Shown here: positions 16,438 to 64,000 of the stretch, piece by piece
Layout: each line of letters begins with the position of its first letter
Position numbering within the stretch: the stretch's first letter is position 1
Assembly: GCF_023055435.1 (NCBI RefSeq)
Contig: NW_025963779.1
Location: forward strand, 22,444,001-22,508,000
Length of the DNA: 64,000 nucleotides
Source of the DNA: Haliotis rufescens
Lineage: Eukaryota
Direction of reading: 5' to 3'
Made by a program: the position numbers and the translations under genes
The notes under the pieces: model-generated
What the model was told of the DNA's origin: nothing
Database searches by the model: none
What the model saw: the letters and a program-made list of their open reading frames with translations, nothing else

Positions 16438-17507
16438 ATATGGAAGAAGTAGTGAAAACAATGCCACATACTCAACAGCGCCATAATAGTGACAAAGTAA
16501 TCAATCTCCCAACACATTTCCAGATGATGCAGAGTGACAGGCAAAGAGTCCCAACAAATTCTCCCAGAAAGCAGGATAACTCACAGTAAATAAACATGAC
16601 AAAATTATTTCAATAATCATAAGACATAAAAGCAGAGGGCATTGTACAAATCCGACTTTATCATGAACATGTGTCCATAAATCACTCTCGAAAAGTAATG
16701 ATATCAGGTGTTTGCAAAAAGGTGAGCTTACACTTCCCCACCGGTGGCACCCATCACAAACACATGTAAAGGCACATCAATTGTACACCTGAAACAACAC
16801 AGGTAGAAGTCAGAACACAACATTGTATGTTATTTCATATAGAACATGTCCTAATCTTGTGGTTCCATTTTCTCTACAAGCATTCCCAAAAGCTTTTTAT
16901 TCTATCGCACTTTTAAATATGTTCCAGGAATTTGACGAAGATTGCTTAAACAAGTATTCAACAACGATTTTTTTTACTCTCATTGTGAATAAATAAAATA
17001 ACTTATAACAATAAAGGTTCTTATCTCACCTTACATTAAAATACTAGCTTCTGATTGGTTATGCCCGGGCAATTATTTTCCAAATAGCCCGCTTACGTGT
17101 CCCACTATGAAATCAGTCGGAACACACCATAGGTAACTAGCATATCTCGAACAAGTATCGTTGAGTTGCAATGAACCTATGTTTATCGAAATGCATTGGG
17201 TAATGGGAAGTAAGTTCGTTTGAGTCGTCTGCTACAAATTTTGCTAACTGAGGACACATATTCCGGACCTGTATGAAAGAATGTCAGTAAGATATATTTG
17301 TTGTCTACCAATCCCTCGGGCATATAGTGTGATCTACCCTGTGTGTGTCCCTTGCCATCACATAGGCCCACACTGGGAACATCAGGTACATATCCCTCGA
17401 GATCGATTGACAACACATAATATACCTATTTCATTCAATCAATTTGAAAGAGAAACTGACTGAACAATATAGGTACATATACCCTGTTTCTTTCAATCAA
17501 CATGAAA

Positions 17508-17722
17508 GAGTGAGTGAGTGAGTGAGTGAGTGAGTGAGTGAGTGAGTGAGTGAGTGAGTGAGTGAGTGAGTTTTGGTTTTACGCCGCTTTTAGCAATATT
17601 CCAGCAATATCACGGCGGGGGACACCAGAAATGGGCTTCACACATTGTACCCATGTCGGGAATCAACCTGGGTCTCGGCATGATGAGCGAACGCTTTAAC
17701 CACTAGGCTTCCCGACCTCCCC
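17508..17722 (-). mobile_element. SINE family B copy with expanded (actc)n tail
   Basis: Reverse complement of 27782-27950; TSD tcaacatgaaagag. Confidence 0.9.
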
Positions 17723-18748
17723 TCAACATGAAAGAGAGAGTGATTGAACAATATAGGTACATATACCCTGTTTCATTCAATCAACATGAAAGAGACACTG
17801 CCTGCACAATATAGGTACATATACCCTGTTTCATTCAATCAACATGAAAGAGACACTGATTGAACAATATAGGTACATATACCCTGTTTTATTCAATCAA
17901 CATGAAAGAGACACTGATTGAACAATATAGGTACATATACCCTGTTTTATTCAATCAACATGAAAGAGACACTGATTGAACAATATAGGTACATATACCC
18001 TGTTTTATTCAATCAACATGAAAGAGACACTGATTGAACAATATAGGTACATATACCCTGTTTCATTCAATCAACATGAAAGAGACACTGATTGAACAAT
18101 ATAGGTACATATACCCTGTTTTATTCAATCAACATGAAAGAGACACTGATTGAACAATATAGGTACATATACCCTGTTTTATTCAATCAACATGAAAGAG
18201 ACACTGATTGAACAATATAGGTACATATACCCTGTTTTATTCAATCAACATGAAAGAGACACTGATTGAACAATATAGGTACATATACCCTGTTTCATTC
18301 AATCAACATGAAAGAGACACTGATTGAACAATATAGGTACATATACCCTGTTTTATTCAATCAACATGAAAGAGACACTGATTGAACAATATAGGTACAT
18401 ATACCCTGTTTTATTCAATCAACATGAAAGAGACACTGATTGAACAATATAGGTACATATACCCTGTTTCATTCAATCAACATGAAAGAGACACTGATTG
18501 AACAATATAGGTACATATACCCTGTTTCATTCAATCAACATGAAAGAGACACTGACTGAACAATATAGGTACATATACCCTGTTTCATTCAATCAACATG
18601 AAAGAGACACTGACTGAACAATATAGGTACATATACCCTGTTTCATTCAATCAACATGAAAGAGACACTGACTGAACAATATAGGTACATATACCCTGTT
18701 TTATTCAATCAACATGAAAGAGACACTGACTGAACAATATAGGTACAT

Positions 18749-18997
18749 GAGTGACTGAGTGAGTGAGTGAGTTGGGTTTAAAGCCGCTTTTAAAGTGGTG
18801 CCCAAAGTGGTGCCCGAAGTGGTGCAGGTTTCAGATGTTAATCACTTCGGTGAAACCCACGAGCATGGGTATGGTGCGGACAAACCTAGAAACATAATCG
18901 GGGCGAACAGGGATTCGAACCCACAATCATTATACTAAGGTTTCTGGCGTGCAACTCCTTACGCGGCACCTTAGACGACAGGGCCACCCGTGCCCCC
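18749..18997 (-). mobile_element. SINE family A copy, internally deleted
   Basis: Reverse complement of family A, flanked by a duplicated part of the 58-bp unit. Confidence 0.88.
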
Positions 18998-19789
18998 AGA
19001 CACTGACTGAACAATATAGGAACATATACCTTGTTTCATTCAATCAACATGAAAGAGACATGTAAACTAATCAATCTTCTGGTTGCTGGGATAATACATC
19101 TGCTTGCATATGCACGTGAGTGACATGACTAAGTCATATGAACATCATGTCATCATTGGACAAAATGTTTCCTCGGGGACCATGGTAACTGCCTTTGAAA
19201 CAAGGCCCCTATGACATCAGTGTCTCTCCACAGTGTGATCTGTGGATAGTGCTGATATGGCTACAAGGATTACCTCCCTTGTACTGCACTGAAATCACAT
19301 CTGAAACATGTCCCCCAAATCAACATTTACCAAAGCAACTAAATTCAGAGATTGTTGTACACATAAAGGTTGAGTTTACAAATCATCTTACATGTGGCAA
19401 AGAAACAAATGAAAACAATGATCCTTTTATGATCAGATTTATTTGATCTACAGCCAGGATCATACAATGATAACGATACAAAAACAACATTGAAAGTGTG
19501 AAATTTAGAATGTCAAAATGCAAATTTTTGTTTATTTTTCTATTAATTTATGTGTGTAAAATAATCCTGGCATGGGATAATTAAGAGTTAAACCCACACA
19601 ATTAAAACTGTGAGCTTACATTTAAGGCTCTTGTAAGTCTTTTGTAAAAATCCACTGCATGGATTCACACAGTTTTCTGGTTTTCAATTCATACCTAAAA
19701 TATATACACAGTCGAACTTAATTAAATTTTTACAACAAAAACAAAAGTTATCGACAAAAGTATGACAAACATATAAATCAAAACAGGCG

Positions 19790-23948: not shown

Positions 23949-26381
23949 ATGGATGAGTGTCAGCGGTCAGTCTTACAGCGCCACTTCAAGCAGCTGGCCA
24001 GTGACCTCATGTTGTCGGAGGACCTGCTGGGGGACTTGTATCAGCAGCACATCTTTGACAGGAACATGATCGACATCATCAGGGTGAGAATATTGTGTCA
24101 CATATCTTATTTCCAACATGCAAGCTTGTATTTTTCAGAATGTAAGCCATAAATCAGAGGTGAACCTAAGTTAAACATAACAAATCTGCCAAGACATAAC
24201 ACTGAAGAAGCAGAAGTGACTGAGAGAATATTGTTTTGCACAGTCAACAATGCATAATTATATAACAGTTGCCTAACACACTGGACCTGAAAAACATGTG
24301 GTTAACACAAATACTGATCTATGCCAACAGTATATTATGTATTACACTTGCATCCAGAGCAGATAATTTCATAAGCATTATCATGAATTGATGACATTAT
24401 ACTAATCCGTAGCATGACTTGACGGTCATAATATCCATGTTCATCAGCCATCAATCTAAGCATGATATGGTGATCAAAGTTGTCCCAACTTAAGGTTCCA
24501 TGCGAGAAAAAAGTAACTAAGAATGAATATTGATTCAATCTTTGTATTATTTAAGGCATAGTCATGGACTATGAGATGTGATTGAGCTATTATCTGTGTT
24601 TCTCTATAGAGCCAAGCTACAGACAGCGACAGGGTGTACAAGATGCTAGAAATGCTTCCTAAACGTGGACCATCTGCTTTTGACACTTTCATCAACATCA
24701 TCCAGGACAGCTACCCATGGCTAGCCGCCATGCTGGATTCTAGCTACTTGGCCGCAAAGAGCAAACACCAGCCGAGTTCAGGTGGACAGCATTGCAAGCT
24801 GGAGAGGCTGTTCACCGTCACAGGTAAGTCAGGGAACAAGGGAAACAACTCTTTACAGCATAGCTTAAACAGTTTGTAGCCATTGAGACTACTCTTTACA
24901 AAATAAGGTTGGATCACATTTCAAGAATCAGCACAGCACAAAATGTTTTAATTCTAAACTCCTTACGATTATTTTAAGATCAGTCCTTAGTTGGTTTCAT
25001 GGATTTGTTCTTCGCCTCTTTAGCTAACTATTAATAATAGCTAATTATGGTATTTATGAACATGTGCAAACATTATCAGCGCATCACTTTCTTCACTATC
25101 CTAGAACTACCTATATCACTATGGAGAATATCAAAGAAGAACTATCAATATTCATGGGAATGGGGGAACAGGTGATCACTTATAGATAAAGTGAATTGCC
25201 AGGTGAAGGCAAATATTCCTTATAAATAATGAATGTGATCAAGAAATACTTCTGTCACTACTTTTCAGTAAAGCTAATTGCATTTGTATAAATAGCAAAC
25301 ATTGTCTTGATAAAAAATCCCAGACCAGTGTGTGTTAATTATTTGCAGATTGAAAAAGAATAATACCCATATGACAATAAATGTATTCTTCTTTATTTCA
25401 GACGCACCTCAACATCAAGATAAACCAGACTGTGACATAAGGAAAAGAGTTGGGACATTTGTCCACAAGCAGTTCGGTCAGAGTAAGAGGGTCTCCCAAA
25501 ATGATAAAAAGGCAGTGGAAAGGTTTCTCAATGAACAGCTGAATGATGAAAGGATTCGACTTCAGTCTCTGGCAGAGAAAGCAGAATCTCTCCCAGACAC
25601 AGAAACCGAATCTGTGGTCTCTCAGGTTAGTGATGTTCAGCAAAAACTGTTTGAAATCCATGTCATTCTAGAGCCATACCTCCAGGGCAAGGCACTTAAA
25701 GAATTCAACAACCTCCTTCCAGAAGACATGACCTTTGAAATCATCCAAAAAGAAATCAGATCGGTTTTGGAAAATCTGAATAGAGCTGAGAAAGAACTCA
25801 CTGAATGTTCTAAGCTGCCTGGGCTTCATGGGGATGAGGAGGACAAATTGCCATTGTGCAGTTACATAGAGAAGTTGATAGAAAAAGTTGAGGATCAGCA
25901 AGAGAAGCTTCAAAGTCAGGAAACTAGACTGACAGAACTGCAAGGAGAACTGAATGAATACTCCATCCATATCGACAAACTAGAATCTGAAAGAGAAACT
26001 TCTAGGAGTAAGATACAACTTCTATCCAAGGAAGTGTCTCAGGTCAGACATGACAAATTCAAGTTGGAGGAGAGAAACGCCCAACTTGAAAAGATTCATC
26101 AACAACATCTTGAAAAGGAAAAGACTCTAGAGAATCTGAAATCAGTTGTGAGAGAACTGCAGGCATCAAAGACTTGCAATAGCAGTGGTAACATAGATGA
26201 CAGTCAGAATGTCCGATCACGGGAGGTAAATGGACTTCGGAGCAGTATAATAAGACGTACCTTCAGGACAACGGGGGAAAGGTTTGGAAGGACAACACCA
26301 AAACCCATCCATAATTACCAGCTGGCCAGAACTAGATACACGGTCAGGAATACAACCAAGAAGAAGGCAAATTTACCATGA
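23949..26381 (+). CDS. CARD-coiled-coil protein, paralogue A (442 aa); exons 23949-24083, 24610-24823, 25402-26381
   Basis: Canonical GT-AG introns in phase 0 and phase 1 splice into one open frame. The CARD reads MDECQRSVLQRHFKQLASDL...IDIIR|SQATDSDRVYKMLEMLPKRGPSAFDTFINIIQDSYPWL (caspase-2/RAIDD-type LPKRGP motif). It is followed by a long coiled coil and an R/T-rich tail. Confidence 0.9.
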
Positions 26382-34111: not shown

Positions 34112-36540
34112 ATGGAGAAAAACCACAAGTCTACCCTGCAGTTCTTCCATGTCAAATTGATGCTTGATTTAAGGGTGAATGAAATGTTTCTCGCACCATT
34201 CCTACAGAAGGGAGTTCTGCATGAGGGTGACATCGAGGAGATTCTGGTAAGTAACTAAACACATACCACAACGCTTTGTAGTCCATATAAAGCTGAGTTT
34301 CATTATTTCTAAATCTAGTTATTGTGTCATATTGTTCAAGATATACTTGTCCTATGTAGTCAAGCTTGACTGCAACTCGTTCGTTTATTAATATTTACAT
34401 GACAAAGCTGTGGTTATCCCACCAGTTCAAACTCAATCCCTTCATGGAATATATTTAAACAATGGTGGTAAAGAACATGATTGAACATATTTGTAGTCTG
34501 ACCCAATAGGTTAATCAGGTTTAATCAAGTATCTTAAATCAAGCCCTGCAATAGATATGTCATTTACAGAGTGGGCCAACTTCAAATGCCAAGACTGCCC
34601 AATTCCTCTCTATTCTGCCAAAATGTGGACCACAAGCATATGATGTCTGCATCCTACAACTGAAAGATGTATATCCTTGGATTGCTGAAGAAATGGAGGC
34701 GTCTTTCAACAAACTGGCACCAGTTATTGACTACAACAATCCCGGTATGCTATGAGAGGAAACAATTATTGTGAAATGAGTTGCAGTAAATATATATCTG
34801 AAAACATCACAATATGGATCCAACCACTGCCACATATTTGACGAAAGTATCTTTCTTATTTGAGTTATGGCTCTTATAGATCTAAATTACACCTAAAATT
34901 ACACCATGGTCTATGAAATGAGGTTGGTTGGTTGGTTGGTTGGTTGGTTAACGCTGCACTCAGCAATATTCCAGCTATATGACGGCGGTCTGTAAGTAAT
35001 CGAGTCTGGACCAGACAATCCAATGATTGATATCATGAGCATCAATCCACGCAATTGGGAGCGATGACATGCATCAACCAAGTCAGATACCCTTTCTAGT
35101 CAGCATTTTCAGGGATCCATTCATATAATTTTCATCACTGTTTTGCCTTTTGCACCCAATGGAATCAATTTTGGTGGATACTCAAGACTCAGTTAATATT
35201 TTGAATTCAAAATTTATTTCATCAATAACATGTTGACAAAAAGCTAACCATGCTATATATAAATTAAATGACAAAATATTTCTTTTTAAACATTGCAGTG
35301 TTTGGATTCCTTGACAACAAAGATTGTAAGAATGACCCACTCTCAATATCTGACACCTCAAACACAATTATCTCCAATGGGGAGAGAAATACCAAGACAA
35401 ATTGTTCCTTCCATGAGGAGAAGAGCAGCATGGTCAGAGAACTGAAACTGATTGTAGCTAGAGTTTATAAAAGGCTTGCAGTGTATTTAGACAGCAGAGG
35501 TGTGAAGGAATATGATCTGGCTTTGTCCGAAGTCCCAGAGGACATTCTGGAGGTAGTTGTTAGTGAGATCATAGAAATAATATCAAATCAAGACACAACT
35601 CTCTTGGCTATCTCAAGCCTATTTACCCAAGAGGAAAAAGAAGCCAACAGTTTGTATGAAATCATACAGGGTATGAAATCTAATATTGAAAGCATGGAGA
35701 GGACACTTGAAGGCATGATTGAGATGGAAAGGAAACTAAAACGGCTTGAAGAAGACCAACAAGAAAAAAATAAATACATAAAGTTGCTGGAAAACTGCAC
35801 TGAAAATTAAGCTGGATGAGATTGAAAAGCAGAGAAAACAAGAATCCCTCATGGGGAGGAGATTCGACAATGAGGGACACAGTCAACATCTACATGTACA
35901 AGGGCATGGCTGTAATGATGATACACCCAAGTTCATGAAGGGGAGTGAAACTGCTAGGACAAATGAGTCTGATGCACATGGACAAACTCACCATTTCCAC
36001 ACTGATCCATCTACTGGTAGATGTGAGGTGCATATTACACTGACCAATATCCACAAAACTACTGGAAAAATAAAAAAGAGCCCTAGACCAGTCGACAGAC
36101 TCAGTCAAAGACCATCAGGTCAAAATACATCCTGATGCCATTTTCTGACTCCAAGCAATCATCAAGAGAAGCTTTCGATAGGTAACAGGTCAACAGCAAT
36201 GCCGTTGATGACTGCAGCCCTGGTTAGACCACAAAGTGCAAATATGTCTCTGACCAGTGTAAGGAGACCAGGAACTACAATCAGCAGAGAGGTAACTGGA
36301 GATTCACTGAGGGGCGTCTACAGGGACTCCAGATCTGTGTCTGCTAGCCAACAGTCCAGCTCATCCTTGAGATCCAAGGACATCAGTTCAAGCATTGATG
36401 GATTCCAGCAGAGACCCTCTTGCTATCAGAAACATCACAAAACAAAATCCACAAGAATTTATGTTTTACAATGTCGGACTTCTCCAAAGACCTCATCTAA
36501 GATATTAACCAAACGTAAATCAATGCAATGGCGCTATTGA
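34112..36540 (+). pseudogene. CARD-coiled-coil paralogue B, truncated or pseudogenised; exons 34112-34246, 34570-34744, 35299-(35810 stop; ancestral end 36540)
   Basis: The CARD exons are intact (MEKNHKSTLQFFHVKLMLDL...IEEIL|SGPTSNAKTAQFLSILPKCGPQAY...YPWI) with canonical splice sites. Exon 3 aligns by eye to paralogue C but has a frameshift near 35791-35794 and an in-frame TGA at 36133-36135. As written it encodes 273 aa. Confidence 0.8.
34922..35087 (-). mobile_element. SINE-like family C copy (5'-truncated) in intron 2 of paralogue B
   Basis: (ggtt)n followed by the family C core. Confidence 0.85.
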
Positions 36541-41327: not shown

Positions 41328-43068
41328 ATGAATGCCAAAGAACGGTTGACTCTGCAGAAGTTCCACAATGTGTTGGTTGAAGGTATCATGCTGAGTGAGA
41401 CTTTCCTTGGAGAGTTCATAGCACAAGGGATTCTAGATCTCGACCTTAAGGAGGAGATCACAGTAAGTCTTTCAGCTCCACTGTCTGGCAGTGAATAGTG
41501 CAATATGCAACTCTCAAATTGTTCAGACTTGTTGATTTGAAACATCATCCATGAACAAACAACTTTAAGGTTCTTTTTTAACATCAAATTGTACCATTTC
41601 TTGTGACATTAACATTCTAAACATGCAATGTGAAACAATCGATAAAGCCAAACCAATTTCTTGTTTTACAGAATATCTTGCCAGAAAGTTTGCTAAAGTC
41701 AAACTGAAGATACAAAGTTGTGTTTGATTTGAAATATACATTTTTATACATTGATTATTAGTTTTCTTTAAATTATAAATGAAACCATATATATGGGGAA
41801 AATGAAATGTATATCCTTTACATGGACTCTTCTAAATTGATCATCATTTCAGCCTGGAAAATCTTTTAAACAGGAAACAAAATTTATCTGGCCTAAAATT
41901 AAAATTATTTGGTTATTCTCAATATCAAATGACTATATAATTTTTAATTTCTGAACAATAGTTTTCAACAACAAAAAAGCCTCTCCCACTCCATTCCTCT
42001 TTAACATTGAATGGTCAGTTCCGAATGTAATTGTTTTCAACTACTTACAAAGACGATCGATATATTTTAGTTTTGCAGATATTTATCCAGCATGCCAAGC
42101 CAGGTTAGTGAAGTTGTATGCATAGAGATTACTGCAACTCAGACATGGGTAATAAAAATAGACATATCACATTCAGATGTCATAGATTTATTGAAGGGAT
42201 AATCTCACAGATGACATTTAAAGTAAATTACAGATATAGATATATCCTAGTGACTGTGGTATGCACCTTTACCACGTTACACACACATCTCAATGGACAT
42301 GAAGGAAACTGTTTTTCATCTTGGTATGTAGTTTCAGGGGATCCTGGAGTCATTGATTCTTTCCAGTATTCAGTATAATCAGTAGTTGATTATAAAGATG
42401 CCCCAAAATTAGGGTATCATTTGGTTTTTTATTCTTAATTTTCTATTACTGTACAATATAGTTGTATGGTATAGTGAAAATTGGTTTGGTCAAGTATATT
42501 TAGTACCATATTTGGTTTTCACACAAACATGTTTTCACTGAATTTTTATTGTAAATCAAACCTACATGCAGTCCATGACTCACCAGTCCAAAGCTGAGTC
42601 CTTCTGTCTAGGCTAATAATAGTCATTACATTCAGACTAAAATCTTATTAAAAAAGAAGAAGCCGAAAGACATGTTCATGCCAGTAGACACTAGTCGTGG
42701 ATCAGCAATACCGGTAGACAGGTAGACAGGTAGACATTGGTCCTTGATGCCTATACAATGTACCAATAGTCTTGGCTCAGTATCTGATAAATAAACATTA
42801 TTTAACAAACACCATAAGTTAATAAAAAAATAATTTACATTCCAAAGTTAGGATTTTTACTAAGGAGTGATTTAATATTAAATATTTTTAAGAATTATTT
42901 CTCACAGTTTAGTTTAGGAATGTGTCATGATTACTAATTACTACTCTGCATGAACATAATTACACTGAAATGTGAAAATTTATGTTTCAATTTCAGTTGG
43001 ATTTAATGGATTTAAACCAGTGACTATTTTACATTTTTTTAAATATTAAACTGAATATTAGACAATAA

Positions 43069-43140
<72 letters not shown>

Positions 43141-43208
43141 GCATTGCATTATATGAAAATAATTACACTGAAATGTGAAAATTTATGTTTCAATTTCAGT
43201 TGGATTTA

Positions 43209-43267
<59 letters not shown>

Positions 43268-46200
43268 GCATTGCATTATATGAAAATAACACTACTTTGC
43301 CACACAGCAGTCATGTGTATTGCCAATACCCAGGTCTGGTAGACACTAACATTTAATATTTTTTAACAAAACATTCATATGACTTGAAATTCTGTGGTCA
43401 AGATTTTCAACTAGGAATAAATATCAAAAGTGGGACAACAAACTTGCATCGAATATGCATCATAATCATAAAAAACATAGTTTGTAACATTTTCTGATCA
43501 TTTTCAAGATCTGCATTTTTAGTTTTAGGTTTAAAGAAGCATGGGGTGATGGGACAATCTGTATATATGTATATGTTCAGTTATTGACTGACTAATTGGT
43601 ATTCATGGAAAATAAATTTTAAATATAGGCATTTATTTTGCTCATTTCTTATATACATCAAACAATAATGTTAATGAGTCATTGACACTGGACATGCATA
43701 TTTATTGGTCTCACCAATAATGAGTGTGTGAGTATGTTTTTATGCCGCTTATAGCAATATATCAGCAATATGAGGACAGGGGACACCAGATATGGGCTTC
43801 AAACATTGTATCCATGTGGGGAATGAAACCCAGGCCTCTGATGTGACAAGAAAACGCTTTTACCACTTGGCTACCCTACCTCCCCCTCACCAGTAATGAA
43901 ATACCTAACAAATGAACAGACAGTTTAAATTGAAAACACATTCTTGGGACAGGCATTGATTTACATTTCTTATAAAGCATTTGTTTACCATTATATGCTT
44001 CGTTCATTAAAACTCCACAGGACTGGTGAAATTGTTTCGTAGTTCAGTACTTTTTTTTTGATTCCCCAAGTATTCATAAACATGTAATTCACAGTCATGG
44101 ATATATTTGGTACTTAAGTTTATATCCACTTCTTGGTATTGTCAAACATGAACATGTATCACAATGACTAAACTCAGTAGACAGATTGTGACCAGTTTCA
44201 TGACATGTGCTGTATGACCTGTGAAGATCCGGGTTAGAATAGGTCTTCAGCAACCCATGCTTGTCATAAGAGGCGACTATGCTTGTCGTAAGAGGTGCCT
44301 AACAGGATCGGGTGGTCAGGCTTGCTGACTTGGTTAATGCATCCCAATTGCCTAGATCAATGATATCAATCACTGGATTGTCTGGTACAGACTTGATTAT
44401 TTACAGATAGCTGGAATATTGCTAAGTGCCATGTTAAACAACAAACAAACAAATAAACAAACATATACTGTACCATGGAAACTGGTAGTGTTACTTTCTG
44501 TCCATTTCAGATAAAAACAGACAGTTACAGTGATATGGATTGAACTTGTGATTAGGTTTAACAAATAAAGCGACAAAACCATTTCCATATTCATAAGAAA
44601 TCTCTGCCAAAAATAGTCGATTGTACAATTCCAACTATATCATGAGCACGTGTTTATGAATCACTATCAAATAAACAAACCCGAGGCACAAGGCCTGAAT
44701 CTAGTAAAATTATTTTTGTTCTTAAGTTGTCTAAGGTAATAATTGTCCACTGGACTGCACTGAAAATTATGCTTAGAGCCATATTTGGGCAAGTAGACTC
44801 AAAAGGTTTTCACCCAGATTGTATCTGTGTTTGCTTTAACAATGTACTACTCCATGTTGTTTCTAAAGACCTTGACCCTAGTTTACAATATCAACTTCTG
44901 TTCATAGAGACTGACCATATGAACTGACACTGAAATATTCCATGGAGACTTGATGACAATATTTTTCAGTGTGAGGTGACCGTAGAAGCCAAGAATGCCA
45001 AGTTTCTGTCGGTCTTGCCCCGCCGTGGTCCCAATGCCTTCCCCACCCTACTGCGAGTGCTGGAGAGACAGGCACCCTGGATCAAAGATGAGTTGGAGAC
45101 ATTCTACAACAAGCAGAGACGTATGTTATCTCCCTTGTTCAACATATTGCTGTATATATTCCCATGTCTTCCACTGTAGCCAGAAGTCCAGGGCTTACTA
45201 GTGAATACTGCATTACAATGCACATCCGTCAACAAATAAACAACCCTACGTGACTCTGGACTACACCAGGGGTTGATACTATGACTAATGTTCCACTGAC
45301 ATATAATAAACAATAGCCAGGTCACACATTGTTACTCCTTAATTTCATTTTATAAAGAAAAACCTTTCTGGTGGAATCTTCTGAACATGATTTTTGCATG
45401 TGCTCTCAGTGATTGAAATGAAGGAGGTCATGGAGTCCTTCATGTTCAGTCACCCAATAAGGACCTTTCAGACACATCTATTTTGTCTATAACATGTGGA
45501 TTATGGCATGATGGATAATTTGTGTTTACTTGGTATATTCTGCTTATATTAGCATTAATATCTTCCAGGTATCGTGTACACTAGGGACGGTGATTTCGTC
45601 CCTGATGATAATACAGATATACAGCCCAGTTATGATCCTCCAAACAGAAGCCAGAGCAGTACTGTACTGGAAAAGGCAGTGCAGACGCTTGAAGATTTCC
45701 ATAACGAAGAAGATGTCAGTGTCATAAAAAGTTTGCGATCAACAATCGAGCATATCTATCTGAGACTGGTGACCTACCTCCATAGTCAAGGAATAAAGGA
45801 ATTTAACATTGTTGAATTAAACGTAACCTCTGAGCTACTAGACAGAGTAGCGAGGGAAATGTTGAATGTTGTGTCAAACAAGGACAACATACTTTCAAAT
45901 ATTTCCAGTCAATTTAGCGAAACTGAGAAGCAAATGGCAGAAAATGATGTGTGTAGCATGGTCAAGAGAGTCCTCTCAGATAAAGCATCACTGAAACATT
46001 ATCTTGACAATAAGGACTTGGAGGTGATGGAGCTAGAGAAAGAATCAAATAAAAGAATTGAAACCCTGGAGGACAAGCTCAGGCAGCTTGAGGAGAAGGT
46101 CGAGGAGAAGCAGCTTCGTGTACTAGCACTGGAGGAACAGTTGCAGGGTAAAGAGAGTGAGATCCAGAAGTTGGAAGTTGCTGACAAACTGCGGCTACAG

Positions 46201-53284: not shown

Positions 53285-56200
53285 TCTTTGGTTGATCGGT
53301 AATGGGTTGGTTGATCTGTCGTGGTTGTGGTTGATTTGTAGTGGGTTTGGATGATTTGTAGTTGGTTTGGGTGATCCATAGTGAGTATGACTGATCTGTT
53401 GTGGATTTGATTGATCCGTAGTGTGTTTGTGGTTTTGGTTGTTTTGTAGTGTTTGGTTGATCCAAAGTGGGTTAGTTGATCTGAAATGGGTTTTGTTGAT
53501 CTATAGTGGGTTGGTTGATTTGTAATGGGTAGGTTGATCTGCAGTGGGTTTGTGGTTGTGGTTGATCTATTGTGGTTTGGTCGGCCAATAGTGTGTTTGG
53601 TTGATTCATACTTGGTTTGGTTGATCTGTTGTGGGTTTGGTTGATCAATAGTTGGTGTGGTTGATCCAAAGTTGGTTTGGTTGATTTGTTATGGGTTTGG
53701 TTGATCTGTTGTTGATGTGGTTGATCCAAAGTTGGTTTGGTCGATTTGTTATGGGTTTGGTTGATCTGTTGTGGGTTTGGATTATTTGTTACTGGTTTGG
53801 TTGATTCATAGTGGGTTAGGTTGATCTGTTGTGTGTTTGGTTGATCCATAATGGGTGTGGTTGATCTGTTGTGTGTTTGGTTGATCTGTTGTGTGTTTGG
53901 TTGATCTGTAGTGAGTTTGGTTGATCTGTAGTGTTTGTGATTGATGTGTAGTGTGTCTTAGCTGAGCAGAGTTTTGTTTAATATGTCATCAGTGCGTTTT
54001 GACAGGTTGGGCCGATATGAAGTTAATTTTGTTGATCAGATGTGATTTTGGTTGATATTGAGTGTTGGTTATTTCTGAACTGGGTTTGGTTTATTTGTTA
54101 TTGGATTGATTGATCTATAGTTATAGTTTGATTGATCTGCATTAGGTTTCATTATTTAGTGGTGGATTTCATAGGTTTGTTGTAGTGGATTGGTTTAATA
54201 CGTATGTATGCTTGGTTGGATCTGTAGATTATTTGCTTGATCTATAGTGTGTTTGGTTGATCTGTAGATTATTTGGTTGATCTGTAGTGTGTTTGGTTGG
54301 ATCTGTAGATTATTTGCTTCATCTGTAGTGTGTTTCGTTGGATCTGTAGAGTATTTAGTTGATCTGTAGTGTGTTTGGTTGGATCTTTAGATTACTTGGT
54401 TGAACTGTAATGTAGTGGTCGGATCTGTACACTATTTGGTTGATCTGTAGTGTGTTTGGTTGATCTATAGATTATTTGGTTCATCTGTAGTGTGTTTGGT
54501 TGATCTGTAGATTATTTGGTTGATCTGTAGTGTGTTTGGTTGATCTATAAATTATTTGGTTGATCTGTAGTGTGTTTGGTTGATCTATAGATTATTTGGT
54601 TGATCTGTAGTGTGTTTGGTTGATCTATAGATTATTTGGTTGATCTGTAGTCTGTTTGGTTCATCTGTAGATTATTTGGTTGATCTGTAGTGTTTGGTTG
54701 ATCTATAGATTATTTGGTTGATCTGTAGTGTGTTTGGTTGATCTGTAGATGATTGGTTGATCTGTAGATGATTGGTTGGATCTGAAGATTATTTGATTGA
54801 TCTTGAGTGAGTTTAGTTTGATCTGTAGATTATTTAGTTGAATTCTAGTGTGTTTGGTTGGATTTGTAGATTATTTGGTTGATCTGTAGTGTGTTTGGTT
54901 GATCTGTAGATTATTTGGTTGATCTGTAGTGTGTTTCGTTGATCTGTAGTGTGTTTGGTTGGATCTGTAGATTATTTGGTTGATCTGTAGTGTGTTTGGT
55001 TGATCTGTAGATTATTTGCTTGATCTGTAGTGTGTTTGGTTGATCTATAGATTATAAGGTTGATCTTTAGTTATTTTGGTTGATCTGTAGATTATTTGCT
55101 TGGTCTGTTGTGTGTTTGGTTCATCTGTAGATTATTTGGTTGATCTGTAGCCAGTTTGGTTGGATCTGTGGATTATTTAGTTCATCTATCGATTATTTGG
55201 TTGATTTGTAGTGTGTTTCGTTGATCTGTAGTGTGTTTGATTGGATCTGTAGATTTTTTTGTTGATCTGTAGATTATTTGGTTGATCTGTTCTGTGTTTG
55301 GTTGGATCTGTAGATTATTTCGTTGATCTGTAGTGTGTTTGGTTCATCTGTAACGTGTTTGATGAATCTGTAACGTGTTTGACTGATCTGTAGATTATTT
55401 GGTTGATCTGTAGTGAGTTTGGTTGGATCTGTAGATTATTTGGTTGAATTCTAGTGTGTTTGGTTGGATATGTAGATTATTTGGTTGATCTGTAGTGTGT
55501 TTGGTTGATCTGTAGTGTGTTTAGTTGATCTGTAGATTATTTGGTTGGATCTGTAGATTATTTGGTTGATCTGTAATGTGTTTGGTTGATCTGTAAATTA
55601 TTTGGTTGATCTGTTGTGTGTTTGGTTGATCTGTAGTGTGTTTGGTTGATCTGTAGATTATTTGTTTGATGTGTAGTGTGTTTAGTTGATCTGTAGATTA
55701 TTTGGTTGATGCGTAGTGTGTTTGGTTGGATCTATAGATTATTTGGATGATCTGTAATGTATTTGGTTGATCTATAGATTATTTGGTTAATCTGTAGTGG
55801 GTTTGGTTGATCTGTATTGTGTTGGTTGGATCTGTAGATTATTTGGTTGATCTGTAATGTGTTTGGTTGATCTGTAGATTATTTGTTTGATCTGTAGTGT
55901 GTTTGGTTGATCAGTAGATTATTTGGTTGATCTGTAGTCAGTTTGGTTAGATCTGTAGATTATTTAGTTGATCTGTAGATTAGTTGGTTGTTCTGTAGTG
56001 TGTTTGGTTGATCTGTAGTGTGTTTGATGGATCTGTAACGTGTTAAGCTGATCAGTAGATTATATGATTGATCTGTAGTGAGTTTGGTTTGATCTGTAGA
56101 TTATTTAGTTGATCTGTAGTGTGTTTGGTTGGATCTGTAGATTATTTGCTTGATCTGTAGTGTGTTTCGTTGGATCTGTAGATTATTTGGTTGATCTGTA

Positions 56201-58080
56201 GTGTGTTTGGTTGATCTGTAGATTATTTCCTTGATCTGTAGTGTGTTTGGTTGATCCATAGATTATAAGGTTGATCTTTAGTTATTTTGGTTGATCTGTA
56301 AATTATTTGCTTGGTCTGTTGTGTGTTTGGTTCATCTGTAGATTATTTGATTGATCTGTAGCCAGTTTGGTTGGATCTGTAGATTATTTAGTTCATCTAT
56401 AGATTATTTGGTTGATTTGTAGTGTGTTTGGTTGATCTGTAGTGTGTTTGATTGGATCTGTAGATTTTTTATTGATCTGTAGATTATTTGGTTGATCTGT
56501 TCTGTGTTTGGTTGGATCTGTAGATTATTTCGTTGATCTGTAGTGTGTTTGGTTCATCTGTAACGTGTTTGATGAATCTGTAACGTGTTTGACTGATCTG
56601 TAGATTATTTGGTTGATCTGTAGTGAGTTTGGTTGGATCTGTAGATTATTTGGTTGAATTCTAGTCTGTTTGGTTGGATATGTAGATTATTTGGTTGATC
56701 TGTAGTGTGTTTGGTTGATCTGTAGATTATTTGGTTGATCTGTAGTGTGTTTGGTTGATCTGTAGATTATTTGGTTGGATCTGTAGATTATTTGGTTGAT
56801 CTGTAATGTGTTTGGTTGATCTGTAAATTATTTGGTTGATCTGTTGTGTGTTTGGTTGATCTGTAGTGTGTTTGGTTGATCTGTAGATTATTTGTTTGAT
56901 GTGTAGTGTGTTTAGTTGATCTGTAGATTATTTGGTTGATGTGTAGTGTGTTTGGTTGGATCTATAGATTATTTGGATGATCTGTAATGTATTTGGTTGA
57001 TCTGTAGATTATTTGGTTAATCTGTAGTGGGTTTGGTTGATCTGTATTGTGTTTGGTTGGATCTGTAGATTATTTGGTTGATCTGTAATGTGTTTGGTTG
57101 ATCTGTAGATTATTTGCTTGATCTGTAGATTATATGGATGATCTGTAGTGTGTTTGGTTGATCTGTAGATTATTTGGTTGATCTGTAGTGTTTGGTTGAT
57201 CTGTAGATTCTTTGGTTGATCTGTAATGTGTTTGGTTGGATCTGTAGATTATTTGGTTGATCTGTAGTGTGTTTGGTTGGATCTGTAGATTATTTGGTTG
57301 ATCTGTAGTGTGTTTGGTTGATCTGTAGATTATTTGGTTGATCTGTTGTGTGTTTGGTTGATCTGTAGATTATTTGGTTGATCTGTAGTGTGTTTGGTTG
57401 GATATGTAGATTATTTGGTTGATCTGTAGTGTGTTTGGTTGATCTGTAGATTATTTGGTTGATCTGTAGATTATTTGGTTGATCTGTTGTGTGTTTGATT
57501 GATCTGTAGATTATTTGGTTGATCTGTAGTGTGTTTGGTTGATCTATAGATTATTTGGTTGATCTGTAGTGTGTTTGGTTGATCTGTTGATTATTTGGTT
57601 GATCTGTAGTGTGTTTGGTTGATCTGTAGATTATTTGGTTGATCTGTAGTGTGTTTGGTTGATCTGTAGTGTGTTTGGTTGATCTGTAGATTATTTGGTT
57701 GATCTGTAGTGCGTTTGGTTGATCTGTAGATTATATGGATGATCTGTAGGGTGTTTGGTTGATCTGTAGATTATTTGCTTGATCTGTAGTGTGTTTGGTT
57801 GATCTGTAGATTATTTGCTTGATCTGAAGTGTGTTTGGTTGATCAGTTGTGTGTTTGGTTGATCTGTAGTGTGTTCGGTTGATCTGTAGTGTGTTTGGTT
57901 GTATCTATAGATTATTTGGTTGATCTGTATTGTGTTTGGTTGGATCTGTAGATTATTTGGTTGATCTGTAGTGTGTTTGGTTGATCTGTCGATTATTTGG
58001 TTGATCTGTAGTGTGTTTGGTTGTTCTGTAGATTATTTGGTTGATCTGTAATGTGTTTGGTTGATATGTTTTAGTTTTTG
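53285..58080. repeat. 4.8-kb satellite of 20-bp monomers forming a 40-bp dimer
   Basis: Alternating tggttgatctgtagtgtgtt and tggttgatctgtagattatt units; more degenerate at the left end. Confidence 0.97.
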
Positions 58081-58662: not shown

Positions 58663-61600
58663 TAAACTGTAGCCCTAACACGCCATAATTTACTTACAGC
58701 ATCACATCTCTTATGGCAGCCCCAGGATGGTTTTTCTTGTAGGTTCGAATCTCAGATTTGTCCAGATTCTTATGCATGTGTTCCAGCATCATGATACCCA
58801 AGCTTAAGGGTTTCATAAAAGTGGTACCTTTCCATGACTTTATCTTTCCTCTCTCATTAAGCTGACAAAGTGTGACTTAAGAACTGTATTAAGTACATTA
58901 ATTAACTTTAAACACTTCAAAATATTATGGAAGCATTAGTGTAAAGTAATGAATCAGTAACGATATCTGATTACTTAGTGATGGTTCTCATCTATTAACA
59001 AATTTTATCAGATGGTTATATACTACTCAAAAGAAGTTAAAGAACACCCATTTTTTATATGGGTCAGTAATATAAATAAATTACCAAAGTCATATAAAAC
59101 AATTGGGTGTTCTTTAACTTCCTAGTTGTATATTTTTAGTACCTGCTAAAATGTTGAATTAACTCATTAAATAACTAATATAACTGATCAGTTTTCCAGT
59201 TCTGTTTGCTGTGAGAAGTCCTGTTTAATATTTCTGTTTACTAGTCATATATCAATGTCAAGCTTACGGCTATCCTTCCTGTCATGGGAACTGAACTTGA
59301 AATACATTGACAGGTTTTAGCCAACAGATTAAGTGAAGATATCACTACACTTCAACACATGAGATGAACTGAAGCTGTGCATAATATGTAACCTAATCTT
59401 CAACATTCCTATATTCACTGGGTTTCTCCTTGTCTGTCTGCTATTCACCAGCTCCAATCAAAAGCCAACAAAAATTTCAAAGAACAGGTAACAGTTGCAA
59501 TGTCACGCGACACTCACAATAAAAAAGCTGACAAAGCCTACAAGGTCCCCACAAAAAGGTGATCATGGATCTATTTGTTGGTCACACACTGAAGCTGTAG
59601 ACTTACAATGGACAGGCAAAGATCAACTTTGAAACAGTTGAGCAGTACAAATTGATCACTGATAACACCTCAAAGAGATTGCAAAGTCTTCTGATCGTCA
59701 AACCCTTGCCTTGCACATGACAACTGGCAATTACTGAACTGTTGTTCATGACCCCATGACCTCTGGTCCCACCTCCCGTAACTTGAAGAGTAATTACTGA
59801 ACTAAGCGACTGGTAGTATACCTTGATATTTACAGTAAACTACCTACATGAGAATACCTGTAATCAACACAGAAAATAATGAATGCAAACTTTGATAAAA
59901 CATAAGTGAAATCAGGAAATATTCTTCAATGGACTAAACATTGTAAATAGCAGCATTAGGCAAATATTCTAACCTTGAAATGTTTATTTTTGAGTATCCA
60001 GCTAATGGCTTCTGTGTGTTTTCCAAGGTGACACATACATCAGAGTCTTATACTCCTTACAAGGCTAACTTAGATTATGAAAAAATTTCTTTTATAAAAT
60101 ATTTTTTTCAAAAGAACCTTCCCTCTTCTGCTGTTTTCATAGACTGTGGGATCAAGGAAACTAGACTTGCCTTGGCTTTTAGTAAAAAACAACTAAATAA
60201 TAACTATATGCATATATATAAATTCCACAGTCATGGCGCAGGATTAACTTCTTACCCATCAGAGTGTTAGTGATGCAGGTACAATGAAGGTGAATTTTAC
60301 TCCAAAATTTCCATAAATTCTGCATGAATGAAGATAAAGCTGATAGTTAAACTATCAATTATTATTTATAACTGAAATCAAAGTGTCCTGATAAAGATTT
60401 TTTTTACATAACATCAATTAAAGTATTACTTCATAAATAAATTCACATGCATCATATCATTTGAAAAATATGCCCATGTTACATTACACCATGGTCCATT
60501 TCCTGTACCTCTACCGTGTATCCTCTGTGTTAAAAGTTTTCCAGCAGTGATCTACAATTGTCAGTATTGAATCCTAGCCACCTGATGTCTCAGTCCAAGC
60601 TGATTACAGTGATTGATAATGACAAAACATCTATACACATCTACAAATAGCCTCAGCCCCTGCATTGTAATGACAGCACGGGATTTAATTTCCAATCCAT
60701 ACGACAACCCTGTGTCGTGGCCACGATTCCCAGGCATTCCGTGTGTATCATGGGTAATACAGTAAGCATGGCGAGATATGAGTTATGATCCAGGTATCTC
60801 TATTGCATGTTGTCGATTGGCTTGGCAAAGGTTTGGACTCAAACAAGGCAGTCAGTGAAGCGATGTAGCACTGATCCCTTGCTGACGACGGCCTCAGTCA
60901 GGGTGTTTCCATGTAGAGACTGAAGGACGAAGGACGAGGGGAATATACGAGGTGAGGTAACTTTGAATGTTTGGGTGAAAGAAAATAATTCTTTTATCTT
61001 ATTCTTTTTTAATCTATTCATATGTTAAAACTAAAACAATGGATGACTAAAAACATGAACTTGGGACAAAATGAAAAAATAACCATCAACACATCACTTT
61101 GAAGTACTGGTTGTGTCTTAGTGATACAAACCCAATGTTCATTCTTACAATGTTTAAGTGTTTTAATAATAATGTTTGTAACACTCCAATGAATGTGTGT
61201 GAATGTATCAAGTTTCCAGTAATGAACTAATAATATATTTTTCTGCTGTATAAATATACAGGAAGAAAATTGAATTTCTAGATACTGTGTTTGACCAAGT
61301 ATTTTCTATAAAGTTTATTTTAAACTATTTACAATTGTTCCAAACAAGTTGTTTCTTGGCAAATCAATTACTGCTATTTGACAAACTTTGAGAAGTATTG
61401 ACTCGGAACCACTTAGAAAAACGATAAGATTAACCTTTTACAGGTCACTGATATAGATTTCTGATTACGAAATGTCTTAGTCTTTACATGAGATATCTTA
61501 ACAAAACCAATCAACATATTGATTTCAAACTTGAAGGATTAGCGCTTCCAATTCACTGATCCTTGTTGATATCTTCACTGTACATGTAAAATATACTAAC

Positions 61601-61699
61601 AAAAATCTTTATCACATCACGTTTATGACAAAGCAGGATGTTGCCTAAAGTCTGAAAAAGTTCAAATTTATCCACAGAGTGACACAAGTCCCCACCAAG

Positions 61700-64000
61700 A
61701 TGGAGGAATCTGAGAAGAGGGTTCTTGGCCAGTACCGACATCGTCTTGCTAATGAAATAGTTGTCACTGAGAGTTTTCTGTGTGCGTTCTGTGAGAGCAA
61801 TGTACTGGACAAGGAGATGTCCGCTGTAGTTCAGGTCAGTACAGTCATCTTCTGATCAGTTCAGTAGTGACGGTCAAATTGATTGAAATTATGGAAGATT
61901 TACTGGAAGGTCCAAATTACAAACCATTCAAAAGCAATTTGCAATAATCAAAGACAAACAATTTTGCATCCGTCAAGTCCTGAGATAGTTTTGTTATCCT
62001 GAGAAGGTTATTATTAGTAGTTAATACTTGAAGCAAAACATGAGAAAGAGTGTGGCCAGTGTCTATATTTAAAAATAAAGTCCAGAAGTAAATATATATG
62101 TTTGTTTTTGTCAGATGTGATCTAGTTCTATTGAAAATTACATTTTTAAAAAGCAAAATGACATTAATCATTAAATCTTGATGCTCAATCGATTGAGACA
62201 ATCCAATCATCAATCATGATTATACAACTAATTCCCAACACTACAGATCAGTAACCAGAATCATGAAAGTAACATGTCATCTTATAGCAACACAAGTATT
62301 ATCAATTTTCAGTTATCAATACATTCAAATGTTGATAATTACTTTTGCCAACGAGTATGTTTTGCGCACCGGTATATGGATATAAACAGAACTGAACCTG
62401 TGTGGAAAATATTCCCCTTATAACACCTTTCCAAATACATTCCCTTATAACACCTTTCCAAATACATTCCCTTATAACACCTTTCCAAATACATTCCCTT
62501 ATAACACCTTTCCAAATACATTCCCTTATAACACCTTTCCAAATACATTCCCTCCTAACACCTTTCCAAATACATTCCCTTATAACACCTTTCCAAATAC
62601 ATTCCCTTATAACACCTTTGCAAATACATTCCCTTATAACACCTTTGCAAATACATTCCCTTATAACACCTTTGCAAATACATTCCCTTATAACACCTTT
62701 CCAAATACATTCCCTTATAACACCTTTGCAAATACATTCCCTCATAACACCTTTCCAAATACATTCCCTTATAACACCTTTCCAAATACATTCCCTTATA
62801 ACACCTTTGCAAATACATTCCCTTAAGCTATAGCTTAAAAGAAAGTGTAATGGTTGCGTGAGTATACTTTTATTGTCAACATCAAGTTAGTGAATCGTAC
62901 TGATACTTCAGAATGCAAGGCCCACAGGAAGTTATGTATTCCTTGTGTTCCAGAATGAGCTGACTTATGTGATCAAGGCACATTGGGATATAATGTATTC
63001 CTTGTGTTTCAAAATGAGCTGACTCACATGATCAAGGCACATTGGGATATAATGTATTCCTGGTGTTTCAGAATAAGCTGACTTATGTGATCAAGGCACA
63101 TTGGGATATAATGTATTCCTGGTGTTTCAGCAGAATAAGCTGTCACTCACGTGATCAAGGCACATGGGCATATCATGTATTCCTTGTGTTTCAAAATGAG
63201 CTGACTTATGTGATCAATGCACACGGGGATATCATGTATTCCTTGTGTTTCAAAATGAGCTGACTTATGTGATCAATGCACACGGGGATATCATGTATTC
63301 CTGGTGTTTCAAAATGAGCTGACTTATGTGATCAATGCACACGGGGGTATCATGTATTCCTTGTGTTTGAAAATGAGCTGACTAATATGTTCAATTGATC
63401 AATGCACACAGGGATATCATGTATTCCTTGTGTTTCAAAATGAGCTGACTTATGTGATCAATGCATACGGGGATATCATGTATTCCTTGTGTTTCAAAAT
63501 GAGCTGACTTATGTGATCAAGGTACATGGGCATATCATGTGTTCCTGGTGTTTCAGAATAAGTTTACCCATCTGATCTAGGTACATGGGGATATCATGTA
63601 TTTCTGGTGTTTCGGTATAAGCTGACTTATGTGATCAAGGTACATGGGCATGTCATATGTTCCTTGTGTTTTTAGAATGAGCTGGCTTATGTGATCAAGG
63701 CCCACAGGCATGTAATATATTCCTGGTATTTCAGAATGAGCTGACTGATGTGATCAAGGCCCACAGGCATGTAATATATTCCTGGTATTTCAGAATGAGC
63801 TGACTGATGTGATCAAGGCCCACAGGCAAGTCATGTATGCCTGGTGTTTCAGAATGAGCTGAGTTACGTGAGCAAGGCCCACCGCCTGCTGGAGCTGCTG
63901 CCCAAGAGAGGCTACAAGGCCTTCACCACCCTGCTGGAGATCCTGTCCATAACCAACCCCTGGCTGGCAGAGAAGATGAAGACTAGCTACATCGAGGAGA
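61700..64000 (+). CDS. CARD-domain paralogue D, 5' part only; exon 61700-61834 and exon 63853 to window end
   Basis: A 45-codon exon MEESEKRVLGQYRHRLANEI...SAVVQ ends at cag|gtcagt. After the acceptor tttcAG at 63852 the frame reads NELSYVSKAHRLLELLPKRGYKAFTTLLEILSITNPWLAEKMKTSYIEE. Confidence 0.88.
62410..62825. repeat. 27-bp minisatellite (about 15 units) in intron 1 of paralogue D
   Basis: Unit cccttataacaccttt(c/g)caaatacatt. Confidence 0.95.
62905..63883 (+). repeat. 59-bp minisatellite (about 16 units) made of the intron-1/exon-2 junction of paralogue D
   Basis: Unit tcatgtattcctggtgtttc(ag/aa)aatgagctgacttatgtgatcaaggcccacaggc; the last unit is the true acceptor and exon start. Confidence 0.92.

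Follow-up and report, generated by a model that had tools for sequence, protein, structure and literature searches.

A minisatellite of copied intron-exon boundaries in a CARD gene of Haliotis rufescens, with one RNA-type contig from a related organism spliced to the nearest copy

Tandem arrays that copy an intron-exon boundary, termed mirages, are known from lancelets, where they have been described in BflGb6, BflGb9, Adh3, troponin C and PGBD5 (PMC3087553, PMC3902484). The accessible portions of these reports give units that are 81-100% alike and homogenised in blocks. For BflGb6, in which 150-160 bp units occur in 6 and 3 copies, RT-PCR suggested normal splicing (PMC3087553, accessible text), and the Adh and troponin C mirages are stated to generate no aberrant mRNAs (PMC3902484, accessible text). 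Related arrangements have been described in humans. The CBS 844ins68 polymorphism duplicates the junction between intron 7 and exon 8 as one extra copy; the distal site is strongly favoured, gene conversion has been proposed and, in the text available, no dominance of the proximal site is reported (PMC2630376). The 37-bp VNTR in intron 7 of F7 has an end unit that spans the exon-intron boundary, on the donor side, and the excerpts available describe pseudo-sites that are functional, normally silent and do not compete (PMC1557585). Moreover, intronic VNTRs in ABCA7 and TERT are linked to non-productive isoforms in a length-dependent manner, by exon skipping according to the available excerpts (PMC5954066, PMC3948165).

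We analysed a window of 64,000 nt from Haliotis rufescens (the whole stretch of DNA examined), which ends within exon 2 of a CARD gene, paralogue D. The array in front of this exon is a mirage. As in BflGb6, it repeats the 3′ end of an intron together with the start of exon 2, with many but not all units keeping the splice signal, and block homogenisation is seen here as in the lancelets. It differs from BflGb6 in its 59-bp unit, its 16 copies and its gastropod host, and from the lancelet mirages, reported without aberrant mRNA, in that one contig uses a decoy acceptor. It resembles CBS 844ins68 in duplicating a junction on the acceptor side of an exon, although no conversion signal was found here. 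The acceptor side is also what separates it from F7, and the use of a copied acceptor rather than exon skipping is what separates it from ABCA7 and TERT. A literature search, largely without subscription papers, found no report on this gene and none of a mirage decoy in use.

Tandem Repeats Finder (TRF) placed the array at 62934-63882 with a period of 59 (15.8 copies, 86% matches, score 1114). The exon-like parts were located by script, starting at 62954, 63013, 63072, 63134, 63195, 63254, 63313 and 63372 in units 1-8 and at 63439, 63498, 63557, 63616, 63676, 63735, 63794 and 63853 in units 9-16. Both methods confirm the first-pass annotation, which had described about 16 tandem copies of a ~59-bp intron/exon-2 unit. 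Each unit contains ~27 nt of intron end and ~32 nt of exon-2 start; the units span the boundary head-to-tail, and the end unit, unit 16, is the real intron/exon-2 boundary. Identity to this real copy ranges from 69 to 83% across the upstream units, and the best ungapped matches to the real 59-mer elsewhere in the window (1-62900) are 29/59 and 32/59 on the two strands. Units 5, 6, 7 and 9 are mutually 96-98% identical and units 14 and 15 are identical, whilst the real copy stands apart, a pattern of block-wise concerted evolution. When the genome itself was searched with the unit pattern, 10 matches were found, 9 of them inside the array and 1 on another contig. The latter was considered as a possible dispersed element, but it lacks similarity beyond 18-19 nt and gives no sign of one. 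The coordinates of the features are collected in Table 1.

Table 1. Features of the mirage and of the CARD gene that carries it. Positions are those of the window unless prefixed L002.
Feature	Position	Strand	Remarks
5′ non-coding exon, paralogue D	60854..60951	+	GT..AG joints in X17 and X19; 5′ end is the contig start only
First coding exon	61678..61834	+	ATG at 61700, 45 codons, phase-0 donor after 61834; P0001 residues 1-45
27-bp x 15.2 minisatellite	62415..62825	+	Unrelated to the mirage; same intron; TRF
Mirage array	62927..63884	+	16 units of ~59 bp; TRF, script placement and unit alignment
AA-unit region	62986..63529	+	Seven units (2 and 5-10); units 3 and 4, which keep AG, lie in between
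Units 14 and 15	63689..63828	+	81-nt exact repeat; AG kept in both
Nearest decoy acceptor AG	63792..63793	+	Joined to exon 1 in the X20 contig
Retained unit and shifted frame, X20	63794..63862	+	59 nt kept; stop at 63860-63862; 67-codon product
Real acceptor AG	63851..63852	+	Codon and phase shared with paralogues A, B and C
Exon 2 (second half of CARD)	63853..64000	+	Runs past the window to L002:3048 or 3078
Two further exons beyond the window	L002:4073-4541; from L002:5268		Contig and record evidence

Fifteen units lie upstream of the real boundary, and their splice dinucleotide is AG in 7, AA in 7 and GG in 1. The AG-keeping units end at 62953, 63071, 63133 (also 63130), 63556, 63675, 63734 and 63793; these agree throughout with the positions listed in the first-pass annotation, and the other 8 of the 15 have lost the AG. 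The 7 AG-keeping units offer 8 AG positions between them, and each of these is followed by a stop within 6-63 codons, even the AG at 63675, whose distance from the real site is divisible by 3. Therefore, lengthening of the protein by any decoy is impossible.

The loss of AG from about half of the units had been read as a possible trace of selection against mis-splicing, a reading that the unit tree does not support. Parsimony requires one step at -1 and one at -2 (mean 0.9 steps per site), and among random site pairs 45% take at least two steps, as many as the AG column. A minority state is present in at least 5 units in 8 of the 59 columns, and the -1 column is therefore not unusual. The AA units (2, 5-10) form one clade, albeit with weak clade support on a tree of low support overall. 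With only two parsimony steps, the loss of AG is explained by about two mutations spread by unit copying. Moreover, the three units nearest the exon, which are potentially the harmful ones, all keep AG.

The gene itself is supported independently of the array. Spliced contigs of runs X17 and X19 confirm donor 61834 and acceptor 63852, and the recorded paralogue D proteins of 435 and 445 aa result from two exon-2 donors 30 nt apart (L002:3048 and L002:3078). Both of these forms are recorded here and in the P0002/P0005 orthologue, and X20 takes the distal donor. The Pfam CARD model (PF00619) matches residues 7-88 of P0001 with 36.5 bits against a curated cut-off of 23.9, and, among homologues with a name, the best are gastropod proteins, which share 43-48% identity (5 of 9 matches). 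CARD paralogues A, B and C, also found in the window, have an intron at the same codon and phase with a single acceptor each. The shared intron position indicates that the real site is ancestral and that the units were copied from it. Capture of the exon start from the repeat was rejected on the grounds of the same shared codon together with the presence of its residues in distant gastropods.

Some further observations concern the gene and its neighbours. Paralogues A-D lie in tandem on the + strand (window 23950-24780, 34112-34750, 41328-45120 and 61700-64000), each with its CARD split by the phase-0 intron at the same codon, and are 22-42% identical in matched pieces. No further CARD copy was found in the 40 kb downstream or the 30 kb upstream. 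The 5′ UTR intron of paralogue D (60951 to 61678/61680) ends in two AGs 2 nt apart, of which X17 uses the first and X19 the second. The real exon contains a donor-like GTGAGC at 63868-63873, 15 nt past the acceptor; its second G has been lost from every one of the 15 upstream units, which excludes matching 15-nt microexons by that site.

Other repeats are common around the mirage. Counting arrays with a period of at least 15 and at least 4 copies, there are 12 in 141 kb, one of them in the same intron. This last one, a 27-bp minisatellite, is 97% homogeneous and lies ~100 bp upstream of the mirage. At window 17440-19050 a 58-bp array of 17.7 copies (98% identity) has outlying copies on both sides and is split by two insertions, each beginning with a GAGT microsatellite. 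This array and a 66-bp array were inspected for links to exons, and none was evident. A 4.8-kb satellite of 20-bp units (~240 copies, strongly G/T-skewed) occupies window 53288-58069, between paralogues C and D, and intron 3 of paralogue D (L002:4555-5080) contains short, very high-copy interspersed repeats with contig depth up to 10^6.

Acceptor choice was examined in four runs with contigs on exon 1 whose status as RNA was guessed (X11, X17, X19 and X20). In X11, coverage runs on from exon into intron without a joint, and the run was therefore regarded as DNA-like and uninformative on splicing. Of the three spliced contigs, two use the real acceptor (X17, organism A; X19, organism B), neither being able to reveal minor decoy use, and one uses a decoy (X20, organism C). 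The X20 contig is 1655 nt long at a depth of 17.3, has three introns removed and aligns in four gap-free pieces (window 61694-61834; L002 2785-3076, 4071-4539 and 5266-5900). Its first joint leads from donor 61834 to the decoy AG at 63793, followed by a 59-nt unit with the sequence of units 14/15 and then the real exon start; the decoy joint was placed by record position 1514, which corresponds to window 63794. Five letters differ in the exon-2 piece (four substitutions and one mismatch in a 9-nt overlap), none of which falls at the real AG, so this is intact in X20. A merely converted exon start was considered and rejected, as the contig carries the unit and then the real exon start.

These contigs bear on the first-pass annotation. 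That decoy acceptors can be spliced, truncating the CARD, is supported by the X20 contig, in which a stop is reached after 67 codons. The nearest decoy was the only one found in use among the three spliced contigs, which argues that array length matters little. At the protein level, a search for a short decoy-truncated protein (24-79 aa) carrying exon 1 gave no candidate, a blank that carries no evidential weight. The same is true of a representative-protein search, whose 8 matches include no decoy-truncated product. One entry, P0014, was discarded as a decoy product, being a 77-aa exon-1 read-through from another species.

How far these contigs can be trusted depends on how they were built. 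As far as the accessible description goes, Logan contigs derive from a 31-mer graph with SPAdes-like simplification, and singletons are dropped (10.1101/2024.07.30.605881). Exon 1 and the intron end have only 5 exact bases in common, and decoy and exon differ at base 11; therefore, reads joining exon 1 to decoy-specific bases existed in X20. The heuristics of Minia and SPAdes usually remove a minor longer path. From this behaviour and the unbroken contig we infer that the decoy form was probably the majority in X20, the decoy joint itself having been seen in a single contig of a single run. Unspliced intron contigs are also found in X20, at depth 2-4.

The presence of the array beyond the reference assembly was assessed in three DNA-type runs, two of organism A (X1 and X7) and one of organism B (X15), all of which contain its 3′ end. 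In each of the three the single-copy contig sets in at L002:2799, where the first 31-mer specific to unit 15 lies. An 82-nt contig is additionally present in X15, and its 9 differences are as many as the unit 14-15 joint would be expected to give. The first-pass annotation had allowed for an assembly artefact. Given the array end and its sister units in 3/3 DNA-type runs, the unit in RNA of organism C, and units that differ by up to 31% in a tree-like pattern, it is next to inconceivable that the array is an artefact of the Haliotis rufescens assembly.

A further proposal was that the array serves as a gene-conversion donor pool diversifying the first ten residues of exon 2, and hence a CARD surface, much as conversion has been proposed from the duplicated junction in CBS 844ins68 (PMC2630376, accessible text). 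Two bases could be taken to favour it. The real acceptor in X20 has a T at -24, as do 14 of the 15 units, where organisms A and B have an A; in organism B, exon base 30 is changed synonymously to a state common to 7 of the 15 units. However, the T at -24 is possibly ancestral and base 27 does not go along with base 30; both are explained by an ancestral state and by coincidence. All five fully countable runs (X17, X19, X20, X1 and X7) carry the bases of the real copy at exon positions 11, 15 and 20, and in X15, where 23 of 26 differences are listed, none of these falls at the three positions. Residues 46-55 do not vary among 3/3 close orthologues, and Y50, K53, A54 and H55 are shared by 8/8 aligned proteins. 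No unit-derived tract was found in the expressed exon in the five runs or the three orthologues, bearing in mind that contigs drop rare variants. The proposal is thus not supported by these data, and such a role for the array is extremely improbable.

The reading we favour, and consider probable, is that of a neutral minisatellite produced by 16-fold copying of the boundary, whose nearest spare acceptor leaks. A 59-bp duplication across the junction would have seeded the array and unequal exchange would have amplified it; spread by unequal exchange is indicated by the near-identical blocks (units 5-9; 14-15). Judged by base counts rather than by a trained model, units 14 and 15 look at least as strong as the real acceptor, with 11 against 10 pyrimidines in the tract and TAAT against TCAT at -22 to -19, around which a branch point is expected from the consensus pattern. 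Exon 2 is probably defined from its downstream donor, in which case the closest acceptors would compete and distant ones would hardly matter. A small difference between alleles, tissues or species could then tip the choice, and in organism C it may lie in intron sequence that is spliced out and hence invisible in RNA contigs. Rather than being an evolved switch, the decoy message is most likely due to unproductive leakage or to a weak allele. Against this neutral reading, a purely neutral repeat would not be expected to redirect the principal splice of a conserved gene in a single organism; the decoy path may be regulated. On the other side, the X20 contig could be partly a graph artefact.

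Each of these objections leads to a reading of its own. If the decoy path is regulated, the nearest decoy may now serve as a co-opted poison acceptor, which would reduce the amount of CARD protein in certain tissues, conditions or species or, through a putative restart at Met87, yield a CARD-less protein. A fully spliced contig at depth 17 was assembled along the decoy path, units 14 and 15 are common to organisms A and B with AG kept, and the reading frame has its next Met at residue 87, right at the close of the CARD match (7-88). However, only 1/3 spliced contigs takes that path and the AG column shows no excess of conservation or loss, and we consider such an off-switch quite unlikely. If instead the mirage is fully silent, the X20 contig would stem from a path of the assembly graph, or from a rare mis-splice that the assembler retained. 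The unspliced intron contigs in X20 would fit this, as would the simplified 31-mer graph behind the contigs (10.1101/2024.07.30.605881) and the silence reported in the accessible text on published mirages (PMC3087553, PMC3902484). Complete silence is nevertheless rather unlikely, as the X20 reads must have included 31-mers in which exon 1 runs into decoy-specific bases. The contig is also unbroken over the junction, where an assembler would usually drop the minor longer path. Decoy use as such would also suit a copy-number splicing rheostat, in which more AG-keeping units bring more mis-splicing, and the available excerpts on ABCA7 and TERT correlate VNTR length with splicing (PMC5954066, PMC3948165). 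Use was seen for the nearest unit only, however, and the identical pseudo-donors of the F7 VNTR do not compete according to the accessible text (PMC1557585), making a rheostat very unlikely.

Taken together, the repeat itself is an oddity of an already known and likely harmless kind, and the unusual part is the use of a decoy in X20. Near-identical acceptors 59 nt apart, between which closely related organisms apparently choose differently, make the array a natural experiment on how a 3′ splice site is chosen. Should raw reads bear out the X20 result, published accounts of mirages as silent would have an exception, and the result would point to a few sequence differences that could tip acceptor choice in a conserved CARD gene. 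It is conceivable, though doubtful, that the nearest copied acceptor now predominates in some tissues or in a related organism and acts as a poison splice, by which the conserved CARD adaptor is either silenced or deprived of its CARD. Should that be true, junction-spanning minisatellites would be more than silent clutter, giving invertebrates a fast and reversible means of inactivating genes in a regulated or species-specific manner.
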